Part shown: one piece after another, positions 2,794 through 60,096 of the stretch | Layout of the letters: the number at the start of each line of letters is the position of its first letter | How positions within the stretch are numbered: position 1 is the stretch's first letter | Assembly: GCA_036676495.1 (NCBI GenBank) | Contig: JAKFCT010000028.1 | Coordinates: 96,001 to 160,000, forward strand | Direction: 5' to 3' | Origin: Candidatus Sericytochromatia bacterium | Lineage (GTDB): Bacteria; Cyanobacteriota; Sericytochromatia; S15B-MN24; UBA4093 | Length of the DNA stretch: 64,000 nt | The notes under the pieces: generated by a model | Database searches by the model: none | What the model was told of the DNA's origin: nothing | What the model saw: only the letters and a program-made list of their open reading frames with translations | Translations under genes and position numbers: made by a program

Positions 2794-3773
2794 TCAAGAC
2801 GGCCACGGCCCAGGCCTGCAGCAACATCGCGCTGATCAAGTACTGGGGCAAGCGCGACGCCGCCCTCAACCTTCCTCAGAACGGCAGCCTCTCGCTCACC
2901 CTGGACGGCATGACCACCAAAACCACGGTTCACTGGGATGCCGGCTACGAGCAGGACGCCGTTTCGCTGAACGGCAAGGTCCTGGCGGATTCCGAACTCG
3001 CCAAGATGAGCAAGTTCCTGGATCTCATCCGCCAGGAAGCCGGCATGAGCCTCAAGGCCAAGGTGGAGTCGCAGAATAACTTTCCGACCGCCGCGGGCCT
3101 CGCGTCCTCGGCCTCCGGCTTCGCCGCCCTCGCCTTGGCCGCGAGCCGGGCCGCCGGCCTGGAACTGGAGCCCAAGCCGCTCTCGATGCTGGCCCGGCAG
3201 GGTTCCGGCTCGGCCAGCCGCTCGATTTACGGCGGCTTCGCGGAGTGGAAGAAGGGCGATCGCCCGGACGGTCTCGACTCGTACGCCGAGCAACTGATGC
3301 CCCCCGAGGCCTGGCCCGAAGTGCGCATGCTGGTGGTCGTCCTGGAGCCTCGTCCCAAGCCGATCTCCTCGCGCTCCGGCATGACCCAGACCGTCGCGAC
3401 CTCCCCCATGTATCCGGCCTGGCTGGAAACCGTGGGAGCCGATCTCGACACGGCCCGCAACGCCCTCTTCGCCCATGACCTCGAAGCCCTGGGGACGGTG
3501 GCCGAGGCCAACGCCCTGAAGATGCATGCCACCATGCTCACCACGCTTCCGACCATTCTCTACTGGCAGCCGACGACGGTCGCTCTCATGCACCGGGTCT
3601 GGGAGCTGCGGCGCGACGGGATTCCGGGGTGGTTCACGATCGACGCGGGCCCCAACGTGAAGGTGCTCACCGATGCCGTCCATGCCACCCAGCTCGCCGA
3701 GGCCCTGGGAGCAGTCGAAGGCGTCGAGCGGGTGCTGATCTGCGCGCCCGGCCCCGGAGCCGAAGTTTGCTGA
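2790..3773 (+). CDS. mvaD: Diphosphomevalonate decarboxylase
   Basis: Start re-set to ATG 2790 (ATGA overlap); NIALIKYWGK, PTAAGLASSASGFAAL, GSGSASRS and TIDAGPNV motifs. Confidence 0.95.
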   Translation: MIKTATAQACSNIALIKYWGKRDAALNLPQNGSLSLTLDGMTTKTTVHWDAGYEQDAVSLNGKVLADSELAKMSKFLDLIRQEAGMSLKAKVESQNNFPTAAGLASSASGFAALALAASRAAGLELEPKPLSMLARQGSGSASRSIYGGFAEWKKGDRPDGLDSYAEQLMPPEAWPEVRMLVVVLEPRPKPISSRSGMTQTVATSPMYPAWLETVGADLDTARNALFAHDLEALGTVAEANALKMHATMLTTLPTILYWQPTTVALMHRVWELRRDGIPGWFTIDAGPNVKVLTDAVHATQLAEALGAVEGVERVLICAPGPGAEVC

Positions 3774-11375: not shown

Positions 11376-12153
11376 GTCCACCCGCCCTCTGACCCCCTCC
11401 AAGGCCGTGCTGTCGACCGACTCGCTGTCGGTCGGCTACGGAGGAGTCCCGGTCCTGCCCCCGCTCTCCTTCGCCGTGAGCCCGGGAGAGCTCTGGGTGC
11501 TCGCCGGCCGGAACGGCTCCGGCAAGTCCACCCTCTTGCGCACGATCCTGGGATTGCTCCCTCCGGTCGGCGGCACGCTCTCGCGCCCCCCCAGCACGAG
11601 CATCGCCTACCTGCCCCAGGTTCAGAGCCTGGATCCCATCGTCCCGATGCGGGTCTGGGACATCGTGGCCGAAGGGGTCGAATCGGGCTGGTCGTTCCTG
11701 AAGCCGCGCATCACGAGCACCCAGAAGCAGCGAATCGCCGAGGCCCTGGAGCGCACGGACACGCTATCCCTCGCCAAGCGCTCGTTCGTCGAGCTCTCAG
11801 AGGGCCAGAAGCAACGCGTGCTGTTGGCCCGCGCCATCGCCGCCTCTCCCCAGCTCCTGCTGCTCGACGAGCCCACCTCGGCCATGGACCTCAAAGCCGA
11901 GGAAGAAGCCATCCGGCGGATCGACGATCTCCGTCGCGAGCTGGGCACCGCCGTGATCCTCGTCAGCCACCACCTGCCGGCCGCCATCAAGGCCGCCGAC
12001 CACATCCTCTTCGTGGATGCCGAACACCAGGGCGTCGCCGCCGGAGGCGTCCGGGAGGTCCTCGCCGATCCCATCTTCCACCGCCAGTTCGCCGGTCTCA
12101 CCGGCGACCTCTGCGTGGACATGCTGAAAGACGGACACCGCCATGACCCCTAG
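11368..12153 (+). CDS. znuC: Metal ABC transporter ATP-binding protein
   Basis: Walker A GRNGSGKST; signature LSEGQKQR; Walker B LLLLDEPT; H-loop VSHH. Confidence 0.9.
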   Translation: MIKSTRPLTPSKAVLSTDSLSVGYGGVPVLPPLSFAVSPGELWVLAGRNGSGKSTLLRTILGLLPPVGGTLSRPPSTSIAYLPQVQSLDPIVPMRVWDIVAEGVESGWSFLKPRITSTQKQRIAEALERTDTLSLAKRSFVELSEGQKQRVLLARAIAASPQLLLLDEPTSAMDLKAEEEAIRRIDDLRRELGTAVILVSHHLPAAIKAADHILFVDAEHQGVAAGGVREVLADPIFHRQFAGLTGDLCVDMLKDGHRHDP

Positions 12154-13018
12154 CTGGCTCGATTTCATCGCGGGATGGGAGCTCTTCCGCGACCCCATCC
12201 TCTGCGGCCTCGTCGCCGGAGCCGCCCTCGGCATGCTCGGCGTCTTCATCGTGCTCCGCCGGATGGTCTTCATCTCCGCGGCACTCTCTCAAGCCGCCGG
12301 TCTGGGGGTCGCGCTCTCCTTCTTCGCCCAGATCCACCTCGGTCTTGCCGGCTTCCTCGTCGATCCCCGCCTGGGCGCCCTCGTGATGACGTTTCTGGGG
12401 GCGTGGATGCTCCGACTGGAGCCGCGCGGCAGGTTGACGCGGGAAGGAATGCTCGGCCTGGCCTATCTGGTGGCCTCGGCCGGCACGCTCATGGTCGGCA
12501 CCCGTATCTCCCAGGAAGCGCATGACATCCAGGCCATCCTCTTCGGGACCGGCGTGCTGGTGCGTCCGAGCGACACCGCCTGGGTGCTCACCTCGGCGGC
12601 CCTGGTCTTCGGCATGGTGATCTGGTGGCGGCGCGGGCTGATTTTTGCCAGCTTCGATCCGGACGGGGCTCGAGTCCGAGGGTTGCCGACCACGCTCTTG
12701 AGCCTCGCCATCCTGGGGGCGATCGCCCTGATGGTCTCCATCGCCACGCGGGCGCTGGGGGCGCTGCCGGTCTTCGCGTTCAGCATCCTGCCGGCGATCG
12801 CCGCCATTGCCCTGGCCCCCAGCCCCACCGGAGCCCTGATCCTGGCAGCATGCTTCGGCGCCCTGGGCGGCGTCGGCGGCTACCTCCTGGCCTTCTTCGG
12901 GCAGTTCCCGGTGGGCGCCAGCCAGACCCTGGTCTGCGCCATCCTCGCCGGCACCGCCTGGATCGTGCGCACGCTGATCAGCCCGAAGTCAGCCCGCCTC
13001 GCCGTACCCCGCTCCTAG
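12143..13018 (+). CDS. znuB: Metal ABC transporter permease (ZnuB/ABC-3)
   Basis: LGVFIVLRRMVFISAALSQ, ILFG and SFDPDGARVRGL motifs; multiple TM segments. Confidence 0.9.
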   Translation: MTPSWLDFIAGWELFRDPILCGLVAGAALGMLGVFIVLRRMVFISAALSQAAGLGVALSFFAQIHLGLAGFLVDPRLGALVMTFLGAWMLRLEPRGRLTREGMLGLAYLVASAGTLMVGTRISQEAHDIQAILFGTGVLVRPSDTAWVLTSAALVFGMVIWWRRGLIFASFDPDGARVRGLPTTLLSLAILGAIALMVSIATRALGALPVFAFSILPAIAAIALAPSPTGALILAACFGALGGVGGYLLAFFGQFPVGASQTLVCAILAGTAWIVRTLISPKSARLAVPRS

Positions 13019-13121
13019 AGCGATCTTCGTTGCTGCAGGACAGCGAGCTTTGACTTTCAGCCTCTATCCATGCGGTTCTCGGTTAACGCTCGCTGCCTTT
13101 CGCAACAGCCGCGGGCGCTAG
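13015..13121 (-). repeat. Dispersed 107-bp palindromic element, copy A
   Basis: CTAG...CTAG bounded; internal IR CAGCGAGC/GCTCGCTG and GTTGC/GCAAC; reverse complement aligns ungapped to 59715-59821 at 89/107 by hand count. Confidence 0.9.
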
Positions 13122-13274
13122 AGTAAGTGGCGCACGCATCCTTGCCTGCGCCACGGGTTCGCCGCCATCTCGCTTTACCGTCCCCCCGCTAGCGCCAACA
13201 GCGAAGACCACGACTGAAACACGGCCCTCGTCATTCCCGCCTTCGCGGGTACGACGGAAGGGCGGACGAAACGG

Positions 13275-13306
13275 GAAGGGGCCACCTCGATTGAGGCGGC
13301 CCCTTC
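13275..13306 (-). terminator. Hairpin terminator downstream of PLD gene
   Basis: GAAGGGGCCACCTC-GATT-GAGGCGGCCCCTTC; the single mismatch is a G-U pair on the minus strand. Confidence 0.65.
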
Positions 13307-13314
13307 GGATTTGG

Positions 13315-14637
13315 TTAGAGGTAGTAATCGAAGATATCGAGGAGACGATTGAACGGCTGAGCGTACCAGGGATATTCCTTGAATTCGAAGACCTTGGAGG
13401 CGTTGTTCCAGTCATGGTCGAAGAGACGCGTGCGCAGGCCGCCGACGAGCGCCGGATCCGTCGTCGCGAGGCTGATTTCCTGGTTGTCGAAGAGCGCGCG
13501 CGTGTCGTGGTTCGTGGAGCCCACGGTGGCCCAGTTACCGTCGACCGCCATGTACTTGGTGTGGACATGGGCGTCGGCCGGCGTGCCGTGGTAGAGGCGG
13601 AACTCCGCGCCCAGCTTGCTCAGGGCGTTCAGCTTCACGGTGTGAAGGCGCTTGAAGACCTTGGCACTCGACTCGCCGGGAACGATGGCCTTCAGCTTGA
13701 CCCCGCGCCGCACGGCGGCGTCGAGGCGCGACAGGACGCCGTCGTCGGTCAGGTACTGCTGCTCGATGACGATCTCGGACTGCGCCTGCTCGATGGCCCG
13801 GTAGGTCATGCCGCGCGCCTCGAAGCGGCCCTCGGGGGCGCTGGTGACGTAAATCGCGGCATCCGTCCCGCCGTACTGCACGCCGGGCTGGAGGCTCGGA
13901 TACTCGAGCTTGCCGCCGCGGGCGAGCTTCCAGTCACGGGCGAACTCGCCGTGGAACTGCTGCGCCACCTCGCCCCGGAAGTCGATCAGGACGTCCTGGT
14001 CCTTGGTGTCGAAGTCGGACATGAGGTTCATGCCGCCGACCAGACCGCGATCGCCGTCCGCCAGGTAGAGCTTGCGATGCGTGATGTTGACGCCCAGGCG
14101 CTTGTCGTCCTTGCGGATACCGCGAACCGGGTAATAGCGGAACTCGACCCCGGCCTCGCGAAGCTCGGCGGCCATGGCCTTGGCTCCGGGCAGGAAGCGC
14201 GAGCCCACGTAATCCGCCAGCACCTTGACCTCGACCCCTTCCTGGGCCTTGGCCTTCAGCAAGGGAACGATGCGCTGGCCCATCGAGTCGTTTCCGAAGT
14301 TGAACGTCTCGAGGTAAAGGGTCTTGGTCGCCCCCTTGATCAGCGACTCGAGGGCCGGGACGTTTTCACGGGGCCCCACGCTCAGCGACGCCGAGTTGTT
14401 GCGCGTCCGGGGGTTGGCGTTGCGCATGGGGCGGACCGGAAGCTGGAACGTCTCCCGGGGAGCCTCGTTGAGGGACGGCCCGTCGTCGTTGAGGGAGGCC
14501 TCTCGCGAGGCTCCGCTGAAGAGGTCTTCAGCGGTCGTCGGTACGGTCTGGGGCTGCACGCCGCAGCTCGCCAAGAGCATCACCGAAAGGGCAGGGGCCA
14601 CCCAACGCGCCGCGGGCTTGAAGGGCTTGGTCGTCAT
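13315..14637 (-). CDS. Phospholipase D/cardiolipin synthase-like lipoprotein
   Basis: Two HKD motifs (HRKLYLAD, HTKYMAVD); GGMN and GSTNHD; lipobox LLASC. Confidence 0.88.
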   Translation of the reverse strand: MTTKPFKPAARWVAPALSVMLLASCGVQPQTVPTTAEDLFSGASREASLNDDGPSLNEAPRETFQLPVRPMRNANPRTRNNSASLSVGPRENVPALESLIKGATKTLYLETFNFGNDSMGQRIVPLLKAKAQEGVEVKVLADYVGSRFLPGAKAMAAELREAGVEFRYYPVRGIRKDDKRLGVNITHRKLYLADGDRGLVGGMNLMSDFDTKDQDVLIDFRGEVAQQFHGEFARDWKLARGGKLEYPSLQPGVQYGGTDAAIYVTSAPEGRFEARGMTYRAIEQAQSEIVIEQQYLTDDGVLSRLDAAVRRGVKLKAIVPGESSAKVFKRLHTVKLNALSKLGAEFRLYHGTPADAHVHTKYMAVDGNWATVGSTNHDTRALFDNQEISLATTDPALVGGLRTRLFDHDWNNASKVFEFKEYPWYAQPFNRLLDIFDYYL

Positions 14638-14837
14638 CAACTTCTCCCTCATTCAAGAGCCAGAGATCCTGCTTCACATGGCCACGGGGACCGGGCCGGT
14701 TCGTACTAGATTAACAGGCAAACGAACAAAAGTAAAGATATCCTTAAGGCGAGGTTAACGATCCAGTCCTGGTGCCTGTCGAGCGGGGTTCACCTCTGGT
14801 ATACTGGGAAGAGCCCCCGCTTCCGAGAGGAAAAATC

Positions 14838-15284
14838 ATGCCTTACGCCGAGGACGCCCTCCGCATCCTCAAGAGCCGCGGATACCGGATCACCCAACCT
14901 CGCCGCAAGGTCCTCGAACTGCTCGAAAAGACCGAGACGGCGCTTTCACCGTACGAGATCAAGGATCTCCTGGACGCGGCGGGCGAGCGCGTGGACACGG
15001 TCAGCATCTACCGCATCCTCGAATGCCTCGAGGACAACCACCTGATCCACCGGGTCCTCACCTCGGGCAAGGTCCACAAATGCGACCTCGAAAGCGAGGA
15101 CCACTGCCACCTGGAGCAGGAGGACCACTGTCATCACAACCTCATCTGCCGCTCCTGCGGCGCGATCGAGGAGGTCCACTGTCCCGGCCTGAGCCCCATG
15201 GAAGCCGAGCTGGCAAAGCAGGCAGGCTTCACGATCGAGGCGCATCACCTGGAGTTCAGCGGCCTCTGCCGGAAATGTAGCTGA
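14838..15284 (+). CDS. Fur-family metalloregulator (probable Zur)
   Basis: GYRITQPR, VSIYRIL, HHNLICRSCG and GLCRKC motifs; extended -10 TGGTATACT at 14797-14805; metal-uptake context. Confidence 0.9.
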   Translation: MPYAEDALRILKSRGYRITQPRRKVLELLEKTETALSPYEIKDLLDAAGERVDTVSIYRILECLEDNHLIHRVLTSGKVHKCDLESEDHCHLEQEDHCHHNLICRSCGAIEEVHCPGLSPMEAELAKQAGFTIEAHHLEFSGLCRKCS

Positions 15285-15391
15285 GCCCGCGAGACGGCCG
15301 GCTCCGGGAGGGTATCTCAACCCTGCTGCATCTAGGTTCGGATCCGGAGGTAGGATGAGCCCTACAGGGAGCTCCTCGGAACGGAGCAAGC

Positions 15392-15492
15392 CTAGCGCCT
15401 GCGGCTCTTCCGAAAGGCAGCGAGCGAGGGCGAAACGCACGTGACGACGACGGTCGTGCGTATCGCTCGCTGGCCTGCAGGAAGGGCGTTAG
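15392..15492 (+). repeat. Dispersed palindromic element, copy C (diverged centre, covarying stem)
   Basis: Arms match copy A at 32/35 and 17/20 in identical register; CTTCC/GGAAG replaces GTTGC/GCAAC. Confidence 0.85.
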
Positions 15493-15513
15493 CCATCGGA
15501 AAGGAGCGAGTCC

Positions 15514-15831
15514 ATGGAATGCCAGACCCATGACCAGCACTCCCACGTCCACGGCGACGCCTGTGGACATCCCGGCATCCGGCACCAGGATCACGTCGAC
15601 TACCTGCATGACGGCCACTTGCATCATGCCCATGCGGGTCACGTCGACGAGCATCGCCTGGAGGTGAACGCGGCCAATCCCGCCGACTGCAAGCCCATGG
15701 TCTGTAGGGAAACCCACGACATGGCGATTCCCCATGGGGATCACGTCGACTATCTCAGCAACAACGGCCATCTTCATCGTCGCCACCTCGACCACTGCGA
15801 TGATCATGGCCCGGTCACGCTGCTCCAGTAA
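15514..15831 (+). CDS. His-rich small protein (22 His, 5 Cys in 105 aa), putative metal storage/chaperone
   Basis: SD AAGGAG; internal duplication HxDHVDYL..GHLH..H..H.D.H. Confidence 0.85.
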   Translation: MECQTHDQHSHVHGDACGHPGIRHQDHVDYLHDGHLHHAHAGHVDEHRLEVNAANPADCKPMVCRETHDMAIPHGDHVDYLSNNGHLHRRHLDHCDDHGPVTLLQ

Positions 15832-15839
15832 GCGCCAAA

Positions 15840-15875
15840 CGAAAGGGGCGGCCTCGAACGAGGCCGCCCCTTTCG
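15840..15875. terminator. Bidirectional hairpin terminator
   Basis: CGAAAGGGGCGGCCTCG-AA-CGAGGCCGCCCCTTTCG between convergent genes. Confidence 0.8.
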
Positions 15876-15887
15876 ACTTTGAAGGGC

Positions 15888-16733
15888 TTAGTGACCGTGA
15901 TGCACCAGTTGCTCGATGAGCCAGAAGCTTCCGCCGCCCACCAGGACGAGCCATGCGCCGGCCGAGGTCGTCGCCGCAGCCGGGATGAGCTGGGCCAACG
16001 CGACGAAGAGCAGGATGCCGGCTGCGAAGGGGAGGGCGAAGGGGACCAACGGCCCCATCAGGAAGGGCATGAGGGCTCCGAGCAGCAAGGCGACACCGAC
16101 GATGATGACCGCCCGGCGGGCCATCCGCTGGCTGGCGCCGGCGGCCAGCGTCACGGACGCCGCGAGGATGCCCTCGGGAAGCAAGTGCAGGAGCAGGCCG
16201 ACCATGACCAGCCAGCCAAGGGTCGATCCGGCCGCGAAGGAGGCCGAAAGCGCGACTCCGTCGAAGAACGTGCAGACCGCCAGGCATCCAAGAGCCGAGC
16301 AAGCGGCTCCGTGGCCCAGGATCGGGTGGCCGCAGGCGGCGTGCGCGTGATCCGGGTGATCGCCATGGCCGTCACCGTGGTCGTGACCGTGATCATGCGA
16401 GTAGTCATGGTGATGGGCGCAGCCGTCGTCATGGTGCGACACGTCGAGGAAGGAGAGTCGGGGGGCGATCCAGCGGTCAAAGGCGAAAACGGCCGCTGCC
16501 GCGGCCAGGACGAGCGCGAAGACCTCATGCGCCTCTCCACCGGCTTGCTCCACCGAAGCCGGCAGCAGTTCGAGCAGCACCAGGGCCACCAGGAATCCGG
16601 CGCCCAGCGCCATGACGCCGCGGAGGCGGGAAGGAGTCAGCCAGTCCCGCGAGAGGTTCGCAAACCAGAGCCCGCCGGCCATCGTCACCGAGGCCGCCAG
16701 CAAGCCATAGGTCAAGTTCAACGTGTTTTCCAT
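15888..16733 (-). CDS. ZIP-family metal transporter
   Basis: GAGFLVALVLLELLP; His-rich cytoplasmic loop; CTFFDG and HLLPEG metal-site helices. Confidence 0.88.
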   Translation of the reverse strand: MENTLNLTYGLLAASVTMAGGLWFANLSRDWLTPSRLRGVMALGAGFLVALVLLELLPASVEQAGGEAHEVFALVLAAAAAVFAFDRWIAPRLSFLDVSHHDDGCAHHHDYSHDHGHDHGDGHGDHPDHAHAACGHPILGHGAACSALGCLAVCTFFDGVALSASFAAGSTLGWLVMVGLLLHLLPEGILAASVTLAAGASQRMARRAVIIVGVALLLGALMPFLMGPLVPFALPFAAGILLFVALAQLIPAAATTSAGAWLVLVGGGSFWLIEQLVHHGH

Positions 16734-53009: not shown

Positions 53010-53067
53010 GAGCGATCGTCGTTGCTACAGGACAGCTAAACTTTCTCAAGCCTAGCGCGGGCGCTAG
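53010..53067 (-). repeat. Dispersed element, copy D (internally deleted)
   Basis: 53010-53036 matches copy A 13018-13044 at 25/27; 53057-53067 GCGGGCGCTAG equals the other end of copy A. Confidence 0.75.
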
Positions 53068-53630
53068 CGCTTCAATCGATCGACGAAGAGCTTGCGGAAC
53101 TTCGCGACCTTGGGGGCCACGACGGCCGTGCAGTAAGGCTGGTAGGGGTTCCGGGCGAAGTACTCCTGATGGACCTCCTCGGCGGGGTAGAAGCGGTCGA
53201 GCGGCTCCACCTGGGTGACGATCGGCGCGTCGAAAAGGGCTTCCGCGGTGAGGGCGCGGATCACCTCTCTGGCCGTCGCTTCCTGCTTCGGGGACTGGGT
53301 GAAGATGACCGAGCGGTACTGGGTTCCCACATCGGCGCCCTGGCGGTTGAGGGTGGTGGGATCGTGGATGCTGAAGAAGACCTTCAAGAGGTCGGCATAA
53401 GAAAGCTCGGCCGGGTCGAAGTCGACCTGGACGACCTCGGCATGGCCCGTCCGACCGGTGCAGACCTGCTCGTAGGTGGGATCGGGCACCTGACCGCCCG
53501 CATATCCCGACTGCACGCGGGTCACGCCCTTCAGTTCGAGAAAGACCGCCTCCAGGCACCAGAAGCACCCGCCCCCCAAGGTCGCTTGCTCCAAGCCCCG
53601 ACCCACGCCCTGATCGCTGTCCGTCTCCAT
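53064..53630 (-). CDS. msrA: Peptide-methionine (S)-S-oxide reductase
   Basis: [41 protein letters not shown] and AE..HQ.Y motifs. Confidence 0.96.
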
Positions 53631-59714: not shown

Positions 59715-59821
59715 TTAGCGCCCGCGGCTGTTGCGTAAGGCAGCGAGCGTTTGCCGTGAAAGGCATGAACAGGGCCTTAAAGTCAAAGCTCGCTGACCTG
59801 TAGCAACGTTTTTCGCTCTAG
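59715..59821 (+). repeat. Dispersed 107-bp palindromic element, copy B
   Basis: TTAG...CTAG bounded; ungapped 89/107 match to the reverse complement of 13015-13121; overlaps the PII-like stop codon. Confidence 0.9.
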
Positions 59822-60096
59822 AAGTGTCGGTAGCCTTCCAGGCTTTGCCAGAAGACCACTCCGTCCTCGGGATGACCGGTCGTCAGGATCGACTCCAGCA
59901 GGTCGAGCACGGGATCGAGCTGCGCGTCGGGGAGGATCAGCTCCACCCGGCAGCGCTCGATCAGCCCGAGGGGGCCGGACTCCCTGCCGAAGCCCTCGAC
60001 CCGGCTGAGGCTCAGCCCCGGAACCGGGTGATCCGCCAGGGCGCGAACCACCTTCTCCCGGCGCGAAACCGGAAAGATCACCGTCACCAACTTCAT
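59818..60096 (-). CDS. PII-like protein with shortened T-loop
   Basis: MKLVTVI, V..AL, GLSLSRVEGFGR, VELI and TGHPEDG.VF motifs; overlaps czcA stop. Confidence 0.85.
   Translation of the reverse strand: MKLVTVIFPVSRREKVVRALADHPVPGLSLSRVEGFGRESGPLGLIERCRVELILPDAQLDPVLDLLESILTTGHPEDGVVFWQSLEGYRHF

Follow-up and report, generated by a model that had tools for sequence, protein, structure and literature searches.

The window (the whole 64,000-nucleotide stretch of DNA that was analysed) carries a Fur-family regulator gene followed on the same strand by a short open reading frame (ORF) for a His-rich protein (Table 1). The ORF starts with an ATG at 15514 behind a Shine-Dalgarno sequence (SD; AAGGAG, 15501-15506). 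Pfam, NCBIfam and PDB sequence searches with the His-rich protein gave no match, its Atlas neighbours are unnamed clusters and the automatic label is unreliable; homologues occur in 11 of the 21 related genomes searched. One ZnuBC-like transporter and one ZIP transporter lie near the Fur-family gene. The fur, His-rich and ZIP genes are syntenic in both congeners compared, which we call G001 and G002; G000 denotes the window's own assembly (4.14 Mb, 106 contigs, 66% GC). All genomes used were draft MAGs, with G000 being 91.9% complete at 6.7% contamination.

Table 1. Features of the locus and further members of the repeat family in the window
Feature	Positions	Strand	Basis or description
Fur-family regulator gene	14838..15284	+	PF01475, 76.8 bits; Fur/Zur/PerR subfamily unassigned
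Native fur/His-rich spacer	15285..15392	+	alignable in part with congeners
Copy C of the repeat family	15393..15491	+	alignment, BLAST, nhmmer, folding
His-rich ORF, 105 aa	15514..15831	+	repeated DHVDYL..GHLH motif
Copy A, long form, TA to TA	13016..13120	-	BLAST of region against window
Copy B, long form, TA to TA	59716..59820	+	BLAST of region against window
Fourth family copy	53010..53066	-	5' box + short linker + 3' arm

Between the two genes lies copy C, one member of a dispersed repeat family; where it is called a 'leader', this refers only to its position upstream of the His-rich gene. In the native part of the spacer, TAGGAT (15351-15356) is invariant in the alignment with the congeners and stands 37 nt upstream of copy C. 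It could be a -10 box, and copy C would then lie inside the 5' UTR. A search for RNA runs covering 14700-15900 listed none. A consensus promoter and terminator scan of 14600-15950 returned 0 and 0, and no U-tract follows the copy C hairpin on its 3' side. The small upstream hairpins listed in the earlier note (CTCCGG/CCGGAG, GTAGG/CCTAC and GCTCC/GGAGC) are indeed present in the spacer and are mostly not kept in the congeners, GCTCC/GGAGC being the only one kept, in one of the two. As a whole, the 236-nt spacer folded no better than its shuffles (z -1.57; 16 of 200 shuffles equally good).

Copy C consists of a TA (15393-15394), the element itself (G15395..T15489) and a second TA (15490-15491), from which we infer that its target was C-TA-G. 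Folding recovered the structure that had been drawn for it earlier. CTTCC (15406-15410) faces GGAAG (15480-15484) where copies A and B have GTTGC...GCAAC, which amounts to two G-C to C-G swaps (alignment columns 41/119 and 44/116). The central hairpin ACGCAC (15435-15440)/GTGCGT (15456-15461) is found in the minimum-energy fold, as is, on the plus strand, an outer helix of CTAGCGCC (15392-15399) and GGCGTTAG (15485-15492) with one G-U pair; this outer helix is not in the centroid fold. The reported distance of 8 nt between the end of the helix and the SD was confirmed. Copy C alone reached -53.2 kcal/mol (z -3.1), with 1 of 200 shuffles equally good, and its opposite strand forms a mirror hairpin of nearly equal stability (z -2.3).

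The syntenic locus of the congeners offers a view of the site without the element: nhmmer found no family copy at the fur/His-rich/ZIP locus of G001 or G002. The G002 spacer there reads ...GGAGCCAGCC|GGAAAGGAGCGAG..., and G000 has 104 extra bases at this point (15393-15496), so that relative to the congeners copy C is an insertion of 99-104 nt. Copies A and B are also absent from the orthologous sites of G001 and G002. Run X1, the probable source run, includes a contig of a co-occurring relative, 26 differences apart over 199 nt, in which only 83 other letters separate the counterparts of 15286 and 15497. Run X2, which comes from another study, contains contigs with copy C at the same locus at about 94-95% identity. 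Apart from its variable centre, copy C has no part that is unique to it, and in this centre the X2 strain has four listed differences. Those at 15437 and 15458, both in the hairpin stem, each break a pair and do not compensate one another. Because the site is filled in the X2 strain and empty in the X1 relative and the congeners, the insertion is real, older than the strain divergence and younger than the species split.

The family itself was missed by a repeat-finder scan at default-like settings and was recovered by BLAST, whose queries matched most contigs of G000, and by nhmmer. A profile HMM built from 43 BLAST-seeded copies gave 126 nhmmer matches in G000 (cut-off E up to 0.01), which merged into about 99 loci. 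Units occur in forms of ~52, 70, 95-105 and 125 nt, plus 55-nt tandem arrays. The 5' constant part reads T-A-GCGCCYGCGGCT-GTTKC-G.AAGG-CAGCG... and the 3' constant part ...GCTG-W-CCTG.A-GMAAC-G......GCTC-T-A. Four discrete spacings separate the 5' core from its complement in the 3' part, 23, 41-42, 67 and 87 nt, and they correspond to the short (~52-67 nt), medium, long (~95-105 nt) and long-plus-insert units. Copies A, B and C are all of the long form, in which the arms are at least 90% conserved and the centre is variable. Its outermost ~12 nt (GCGCCCGCGGCT vs the reverse complement of ...GATCGCTC) are not inverted repeats, whereas the long subterminal arms are. Head-to-tail arrays, for example at G000:C47:50525-50812 and C10:4079-4319, have a period of 55 nt, equal to a 53-nt unit plus TA, and the 13-nt 5' box is also found solo or in tandem units of 19-22 nt. 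BLAST matches numbered 29 in one congener and 27 in the other; two further genera of the taxonomic family had 6 and 1, and the 16 remaining relatives had 0. Across 185,579 species genomes (one each), an exact 27-nt pattern was found in 40 stretches, all in two Candidatus Sericytochromatia MAGs.

Placement of the 99 loci was analysed against gene calls from a crude, purpose-written codon-usage caller, to which the His-rich ORF was added by hand. By these calls, 87 loci are intergenic, 8 partly overlap genes and 4 lie inside called genes. Among the intergenic loci, in orientation classes that may hold errors, 30 stand between convergent genes, 47 between tandem genes (27 antisense, 19 sense and 1 mixed), 7 between divergent genes and 3 at a contig edge. 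With 537 convergent, 531 divergent and 2247 tandem spacers genome-wide, convergent-gene spacers are enriched twofold for the family (30/87 vs 537/3315). Neither GC skew nor the strand of local genes was associated with the orientation of the family (Fisher p 1.0 and 0.83), a test that does not discriminate between mechanisms and for which GC skew is possibly weak here. The family is therefore extragenic, with a preference for gene ends and none for either direction of transcription.

Seven sites contain one TA when empty and TA...TA when filled (C47:12566, C59:51136, copy B, L039, L048, L051 and L055). At G000:C47:12566, the congeners read ...GCTGGA-CTAG-AAGTCG... and G000 reads ...GCTGGA-C-TA-[52 nt]-TA-G-AAATCG...; at G000:C59:51136, G001 is empty (...CGC-TA-GCGC...), and G000 and G002 are both filled, with a TA on each side. 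At the copy B site, the P-II-like orthologue of G002 ends in TAA and no element is present. Further sites came from reverse mapping, in which the flanks of 40 copies from two Sericytochromatia MAGs were placed on G000, with both flanks for 24 copies and not for 16. Inspection by eye identified four clean single-TA empty sites (L039, L048, L051, L055), two loci filled with a full element of different form (L040, L042) and about three with remnants or solo boxes (L023, L025, L054), the rest being too diverged to call. The family is polymorphic between congeners.

For 31 well-bounded units, the targets deduced from the flanks were CTAG (16), TTAG (9), CTAA (4), TTAA (1) and ATAG (1), so that 30 of 31 are YTAR, compared with 11.8% YTAR among all genomic NTAN. 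Insertion occurs at a single TA, which afterwards flanks the element on both sides, and the target is nearly always YTAR and mostly CTAG. Alternatively, an element with a terminal TA of its own could have inserted 3' of a TA, and the two flanking TAs would then not be a duplication. We rejected a duplication of 4 bp (YTAR), since the two junction tetramers of non-CTAG targets (copy B, L048, L051) differ from each other and the TA is what they always have in common. The flanks of copy C, C-TA...TA-G, fit the rule. At the corresponding empty site of G002 and G001, the junction (AGCC|GGAAAGG) contains no TA, so the TA reading there needs an extra 8-nt difference (TAGCCATC).

The element begins with G and ends with C, and both junctions therefore read TAG on the outward-facing strands. 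As a consequence, it can occupy a TAG or TAA stop codon and leave the neighbouring protein unchanged. A stop codon was abutted exactly by 29 of the 87 units, with the 5' end in 11 cases, the 3' end in 21 and both ends in 3, and 30 of 110 5' boxes supply the TAG with which the upstream same-strand gene stops. CTAG is rare, with 2427 occurrences in the 4.1 Mb of G000. The accumulation at gene ends and between convergent genes thus follows from stop-compatible ends together with CTAG rarity and the purging of intragenic insertions. The 55-nt arrays have the pattern that repeated insertion into a flanking TA would give.

The other copies in the window are also joined to stop codons. The terminal TA of copy A plus G forms the TAG stop (13016-13018) of an ABC-3 permease ORF (12143-13018), the 3' CTA of copy B (59818-59820) is the TAG stop of a P-II-like ORF on the minus strand (59818-60096), and the TAG of the fourth copy (53064-53066) is the stop of another minus-strand ORF (53064-53630). 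At 99 loci in 4.1 Mb, about 1.5 copies would be expected in 64 kb, and the four observed are no convincing excess. That A, B and C stand near 'metal genes' is therefore best read as coincidence.

Covariation was counted on 37 long-form copies, 33 from G000 and 4 from relatives; copies with a 5'-arm insert, irregular copies and array copies were left out. RNAalifold predicted 16 pairs, 5 of them with double-sided changes. The statistics were computed on an 18-pair structure that we specified ourselves, over all 37 sequences. Standard pairs were formed by 94.3% of the cells (shuffles 86.7 +/- 0.7) and 40 cells were changed on both sides (shuffles 13.9 +/- 2.3), values that 0 of 500 shuffles reached in either case. 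The covariation score was 0.176, compared with 0.050 in shuffled alignments and at most 0.076 with slid partners. In counts that refer to sequences, not to independent events, and with variants that track subfamilies, pair 44/116 was G-C in 19 copies, U-A in 16 and C-G in 2 and was never unpaired, pair 41/119 was G-C in 33, C-G in 2 and A-U in 1, pair 59/100 was C-G in 22, A-U in 12 and G-C in 1, and pair 53/106 was A-U in 28 and C-G in 5. Mismatches comprised a handful each of G-U and A-C, with no clear strand asymmetry. Stem covariation across the family is real.

The C-G cells at 41/119 and 44/116 belong to copy C and to one copy in G008, a genome of another genus, and the unusual 3' tail GGGCGTTAGC is common to these two copies. 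In a pattern search of the taxonomic family's 10 genomes, the CTTCC/GGAAG variant had one occurrence each in G000 and G008. The G008 copy has neither a fur nor a His-rich homologue next to it, the His-rich homologue of that genome being on another contig. Since the same variant stands in another context in G008, the paired swaps of copy C appear to be a subfamily trait that is older than its landing at the His-rich gene. The proposal that selection acts on the fold is partly supported, in that the helix is preserved by paired changes and many copies have conserved the hairpin. Selection on a regulator of the His-rich gene is not supported.

The search for a mobilising enzyme covered the DDE_3, DDE_Tnp_1, DDE_Tnp_1_2 and Y1_Tnp loci of G000, G001, G002 and G008 or of the taxonomic family's genomes and found no autonomous element with the family's ends. 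DDE_3, the IS630 type, had 0 matches in G000; one match in G001 and four in other genera lacked the family's ends, as did the DDE_Tnp_1 and DDE_Tnp_1_2 loci. At G001:C47, an IS abuts a family copy exactly at its terminal CTAG, and the TIRs of this IS are unrelated. A Y1 transposase of G000 scored 81 bits with the NCBIfam model for REP-associated tyrosine transposases (RAYTs; cut-off 80 bits). A different REP (GGGGCGGGCC...GCCCGCC), and not the repeat family, flanks this RAYT (G000:C48) and its orthologue in G002. Draft MAGs commonly lose IS copies, and the missing parent transposase is for this reason weak evidence.

Taken together, these results point to copy C as an insertion of a small non-coding mobile palindromic repeat of the MITE/REP-like kind, found, among the genomes searched, in only a few of Candidatus Sericytochromatia, and we put the probability of this reading at about 0.85. 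A transposase would move the family in trans, most likely a TA-duplicating DDE enzyme of IS630/Tc1-mariner type; a double-strand, dimeric enzyme of this kind is what the symmetry of the YTAR preference speaks for. Matching arms would be needed for mobility, so that subfamilies would come to differ by paired changes on both arms, and the 'compensatory' pattern of copy C would have been inherited from its subfamily. Several observations fit this reading less well. No autonomous element with matching ends was found, mismatched outermost ~12 nt are atypical for a TIR-type MITE, the flanking TAs could also derive from a TA-ended element without duplication, and the empty C site of G002 and G001 has no TA. 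Copy C is probably transcribed with the His-rich gene, either from the possible -10 box in the spacer or together with fur from a promoter of that gene, and both routes would place a hairpin of -53 kcal/mol 8 nt before the SD. As with Correia and ERIC elements, the hairpin could act as an RNase target, stabiliser or roadblock, as a by-product of the insertion, and a passive effect on processing, stability or translation of the His-rich mRNA is possible.

The earlier note had seen in copy C a possible cis-regulator, a metal-responsive leader or a processing or stability element, and this proposal is disfavoured. A dedicated regulatory RNA for the His-rich gene, whether a metal-responsive leader, a riboswitch or an element evolved for processing or stability, with selection on the fold at this locus, would account for a stable hairpin that ends 8 nt before the SD, for paired changes that keep the stem and for the retention of copy C in the ~95% identical strain of another study. 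It would also suit the invariant TAGGAT as a candidate -10, with the element in the 5' UTR. We consider it very improbable nonetheless, as the element is absent from the syntenic locus of both congeners and of the co-occurring relative, is one of ~99 dispersed loci beside unrelated genes in both orientations, and has a variant stem in common with a copy in another genus and another context. In addition, the two X2 changes in its central stem break pairs without compensation, and Rfam had 0 matches at gathering score in the whole window, metal riboswitches included, and nothing relevant at E up to 10 in 12900-15900. There is no indication of metal sensing by copy C; the metal link is one of neighbourhood only. 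A different kind of host function would apply to the whole family, kept to bind a protein, to stabilise mRNA 3' ends or to serve between convergent genes as a bidirectional terminator or insulator, with mobility secondary. The twofold enrichment between convergent genes, arms far better conserved than the centre, the same hairpin on both strands and copies kept at orthologous congener sites (C59:51136, L040, L042) speak for such a role. Yet most orthologous sites differ between congeners, most copies have no U-tract after them, no terminator was called at C, and the scarcity of YTAR outside stop codons, illustrated by the CTAG count, explains the placement. We regard this host role as decidedly unlikely.

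Mobilisation through a single-stranded DNA hairpin by an HUH/Y1 enzyme (RAYT or IS200/IS605-like) would place the element 3' of a TA target without duplication, and stem covariation would reflect recognition of hairpin shape. The mismatched tips and the conservation of shape keep this route open, and strong stem covariation, conserved bulges and internal loops, asymmetric extreme ends, mosaic and tandem arrangements resembling BIMEs and the single Y1 transposase that passes the RAYT cut-off all agree with it; REPs, moreover, are reported mostly downstream of genes (PMC3733652). We nevertheless hold it to be unlikely. In both G000 and G002 the RAYT is flanked by another REP, the GTAG or CGTC tag is absent from units that measure 52-125 nt and not 20-40, and the base after the right TA mirrors the base before the left TA (the YTAR pattern), for which a symmetric double-strand target is a better fit than a one-strand guide. 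Orientation was also not linked to GC skew or gene strand, with the skew possibly weak. In a bolder and quite doubtful reading, the family would be more than a decaying MITE, namely a mobile element that depends on its hairpin. A putative TA/YTAR-specific enzyme would recognise the conserved asymmetric loops and covarying stems as structure in single-stranded DNA or RNA, and the TAG ends would serve to enter stop codons, separate overlapping convergent genes and form arrays head to tail. Copy C might then work in this species as a co-opted gate on the processing or translation of the His-rich mRNA.

The reading of copy C as a mobile repeat removes a false lead, in that its fold and paired changes are traits of a repeat family and do not mark a metal-sensing leader; copies A and B call for equal caution. 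None of the papers listed in our literature searches pairs Sericytochromatia with a repeat or MITE study, and the family is apparently undescribed in these non-photosynthetic relatives of cyanobacteria. Because both of its ends recreate TAG, it can reside harmlessly in stop codons. Repeats of this kind break MAG assemblies and can mislead the annotation of RNA motifs and gene ends, and they are markers for strain typing and the dating of insertions.

The family is a new example of a TA-targeting palindromic MITE/REP-like repeat. Like MITEs in general, it has small, non-coding, dispersed copies (52 to ~125 nt), filled and empty orthologous sites and, at seven sites, a pattern of target-site duplication for which an element-borne terminal TA is the alternative; a parent IS with the same ends was not found in the transposase loci searched. 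Metal riboswitches and leaders such as NiCo and yybP-ykoY are recognised by a curated RNA match and by conserved position and orientation, neither of which was found in the window or at the syntenic locus of G001 and G002. IS630 elements prefer CTAG targets and duplicate the TA. The family resembles IS630/Tc1-mariner elements and their MITEs in its insertion at TA, with a TA on both sides consistent with duplication, and in its preference for CTAG. It differs from them in that no DDE_3 transposase recognising its ends was found: G000 has no DDE_3, and those of G001 and other genera lack the family's ends.

Correia insertion also duplicates TA, and Correia elements have 26-bp inverted repeats at their very tips and an IHF site. 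The family is similar to this Neisseria MITE (Correia/NEMIS) in being non-coding, dispersed and gene-adjacent, with a length comparable to ~100-150 bp and long transcript hairpins, and unlike it in its mismatched outer 12 nt, subterminal arms, 55-nt arrays and nested forms; there is no sequence similarity. RNase III cleavage of Correia hairpins and promoter effects are reported in PMC10969869, which also describes effects of MITE hairpins through promoters and IHF. The bcr1 repeats of the Bacillus cereus group and ERIC of enterobacteria (~127-155 bp) are further MITE-like counterparts. Compensatory base changes keep the RNA hairpin of bcr1, which unlike the family has 5-bp direct repeats (PMC3184786), and ERIC hairpins alter mRNA decay through RNase E action (PMC10969869). 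Both belong to other taxa and are not similar in sequence, and the family is known here from DNA alone.

REP/BIME/REPIN-RAYT systems of E. coli and Pseudomonas, as portrayed in PMC3733652, are likewise extragenic palindromes that stand mostly after genes, in both orientations and in mosaic clusters or arrays, and G000 carries a RAYT as their hosts do. In the same source, REPs are palindromes of 20-40 bp tagged with GTAG or CGTC, whereas units of the family measure at least 52 nt, have the ends YTA-G...C-TAR and carry no such tag; the RAYT of G000 is flanked by another REP and not by the family's repeats. Nezha, a MITE of Anabaena/Nostoc and hence of the wider cyanobacterial lineage, has filled and empty orthologous sites and a stable fold, as the family has (PMC3184786). 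Nezha shares its TIRs with ISNpu3, whereas the repeat family is without a known parent IS, and the two sequences are unrelated. Ends that suit stop codons, the arrays and the host lineage give the family a modest interest of its own.

In both congeneric genomes (loci L130 and L131), two convergent genes share a single CTAG, so that their stop codons overlap, one TAG on each strand. In the genome of the window (G000), a 52-nt unit of the family was found inserted into the TA of that CTAG, and the two convergent genes now lie apart, each retaining its TAG stop. TAG is the commonest stop codon in the whole of G000, with 1333 occurrences, followed by TGA (1057) and TAA (976), as counted on our own crude gene calls. 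The genome is 66% GC and holds only 2427 CTAG sites.

The family's 5' box, 13 nt long (AGCGCCYGCGGCT) and preceded by T, was also found solo or as two to three tandem units of 19-22 nt each. Often these boxes begin at a TAG stop codon and finish just ahead of the following gene's SD and ATG. At the orthologous site L023, a congener carries a full long element, whereas G000 has two solo boxes. Comparison of loci L040 and L042 with contigs C19 and C79 of G000 showed two orthologous sites that are filled in each genome but by elements of different form: short versus medium, and long versus long with an insert of ~20 nt. This indicates that the forms interconvert in place. The insert includes a second box-like motif, and nested insertion is a possible route for such interconversion.

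In the congener G001, an IS sits precisely at a family copy's terminal CTAG and has TAG at each of its own two ends. This IS looks like a second element of the genus that targets TA/CTAG.

Features and their coordinates (G000, genome of the window; G001 and G002, congeneric genomes; C, contig; L, locus cut out for comparison)
Feature	Location	Remarks
Candidate -10 element TGGTATACT, upstream of fur	window 14805-14813	
Candidate -10 element TAGGAT, native fur/His-rich spacer	window 15351-15356	
His-rich protein, 105 aa	window 15514-15831	DHVDYL..GHLH motif, twice
Solo/tandem 5' boxes	G000:C11 ~3630-3670; C28:160400; C30:32078; C28:169684	others too
Family unit inserted into overlapping stops	G000:C47:12566-12625	52 nt
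Y1 transposase, 160 aa	L073:1137-1900 (G000:C48)	single-copy; congener counterpart L075 (G002:C67)
IS with 462-aa DDE_Tnp_1 transposase	L147 (G001:C47:1-2192)	TIR GGAGCCTGTCGAG; cut by contig end

Around fur, TAGGAT is unchanged across three congeneric genomes, and the upstream motif is also retained in contigs of relatives. Both are candidate -10 elements by sequence; a consensus promoter scan called no promoter at either. The His-rich protein had no match among Pfam, NCBIfam and PDB sequences. Of 21 related genomes, 11 carry homologues; in the genus of G000 the gene adjoins fur and a ZIP transporter. This small protein probably binds metal and belongs to an unnamed family.

The Y1 transposase of G000 passes the NCBIfam model for REP-associated tyrosine transposases (81 bits against a cut-off of 80). 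Inverted copies of its own REP (GGTGTTTGTGGGGCGGGCCTC.G.GCCCGCC) lie on either side of it, and cores of this REP number ~25 in the genome. This REPtron, the transposase together with its REP, is kept in the congener G002.
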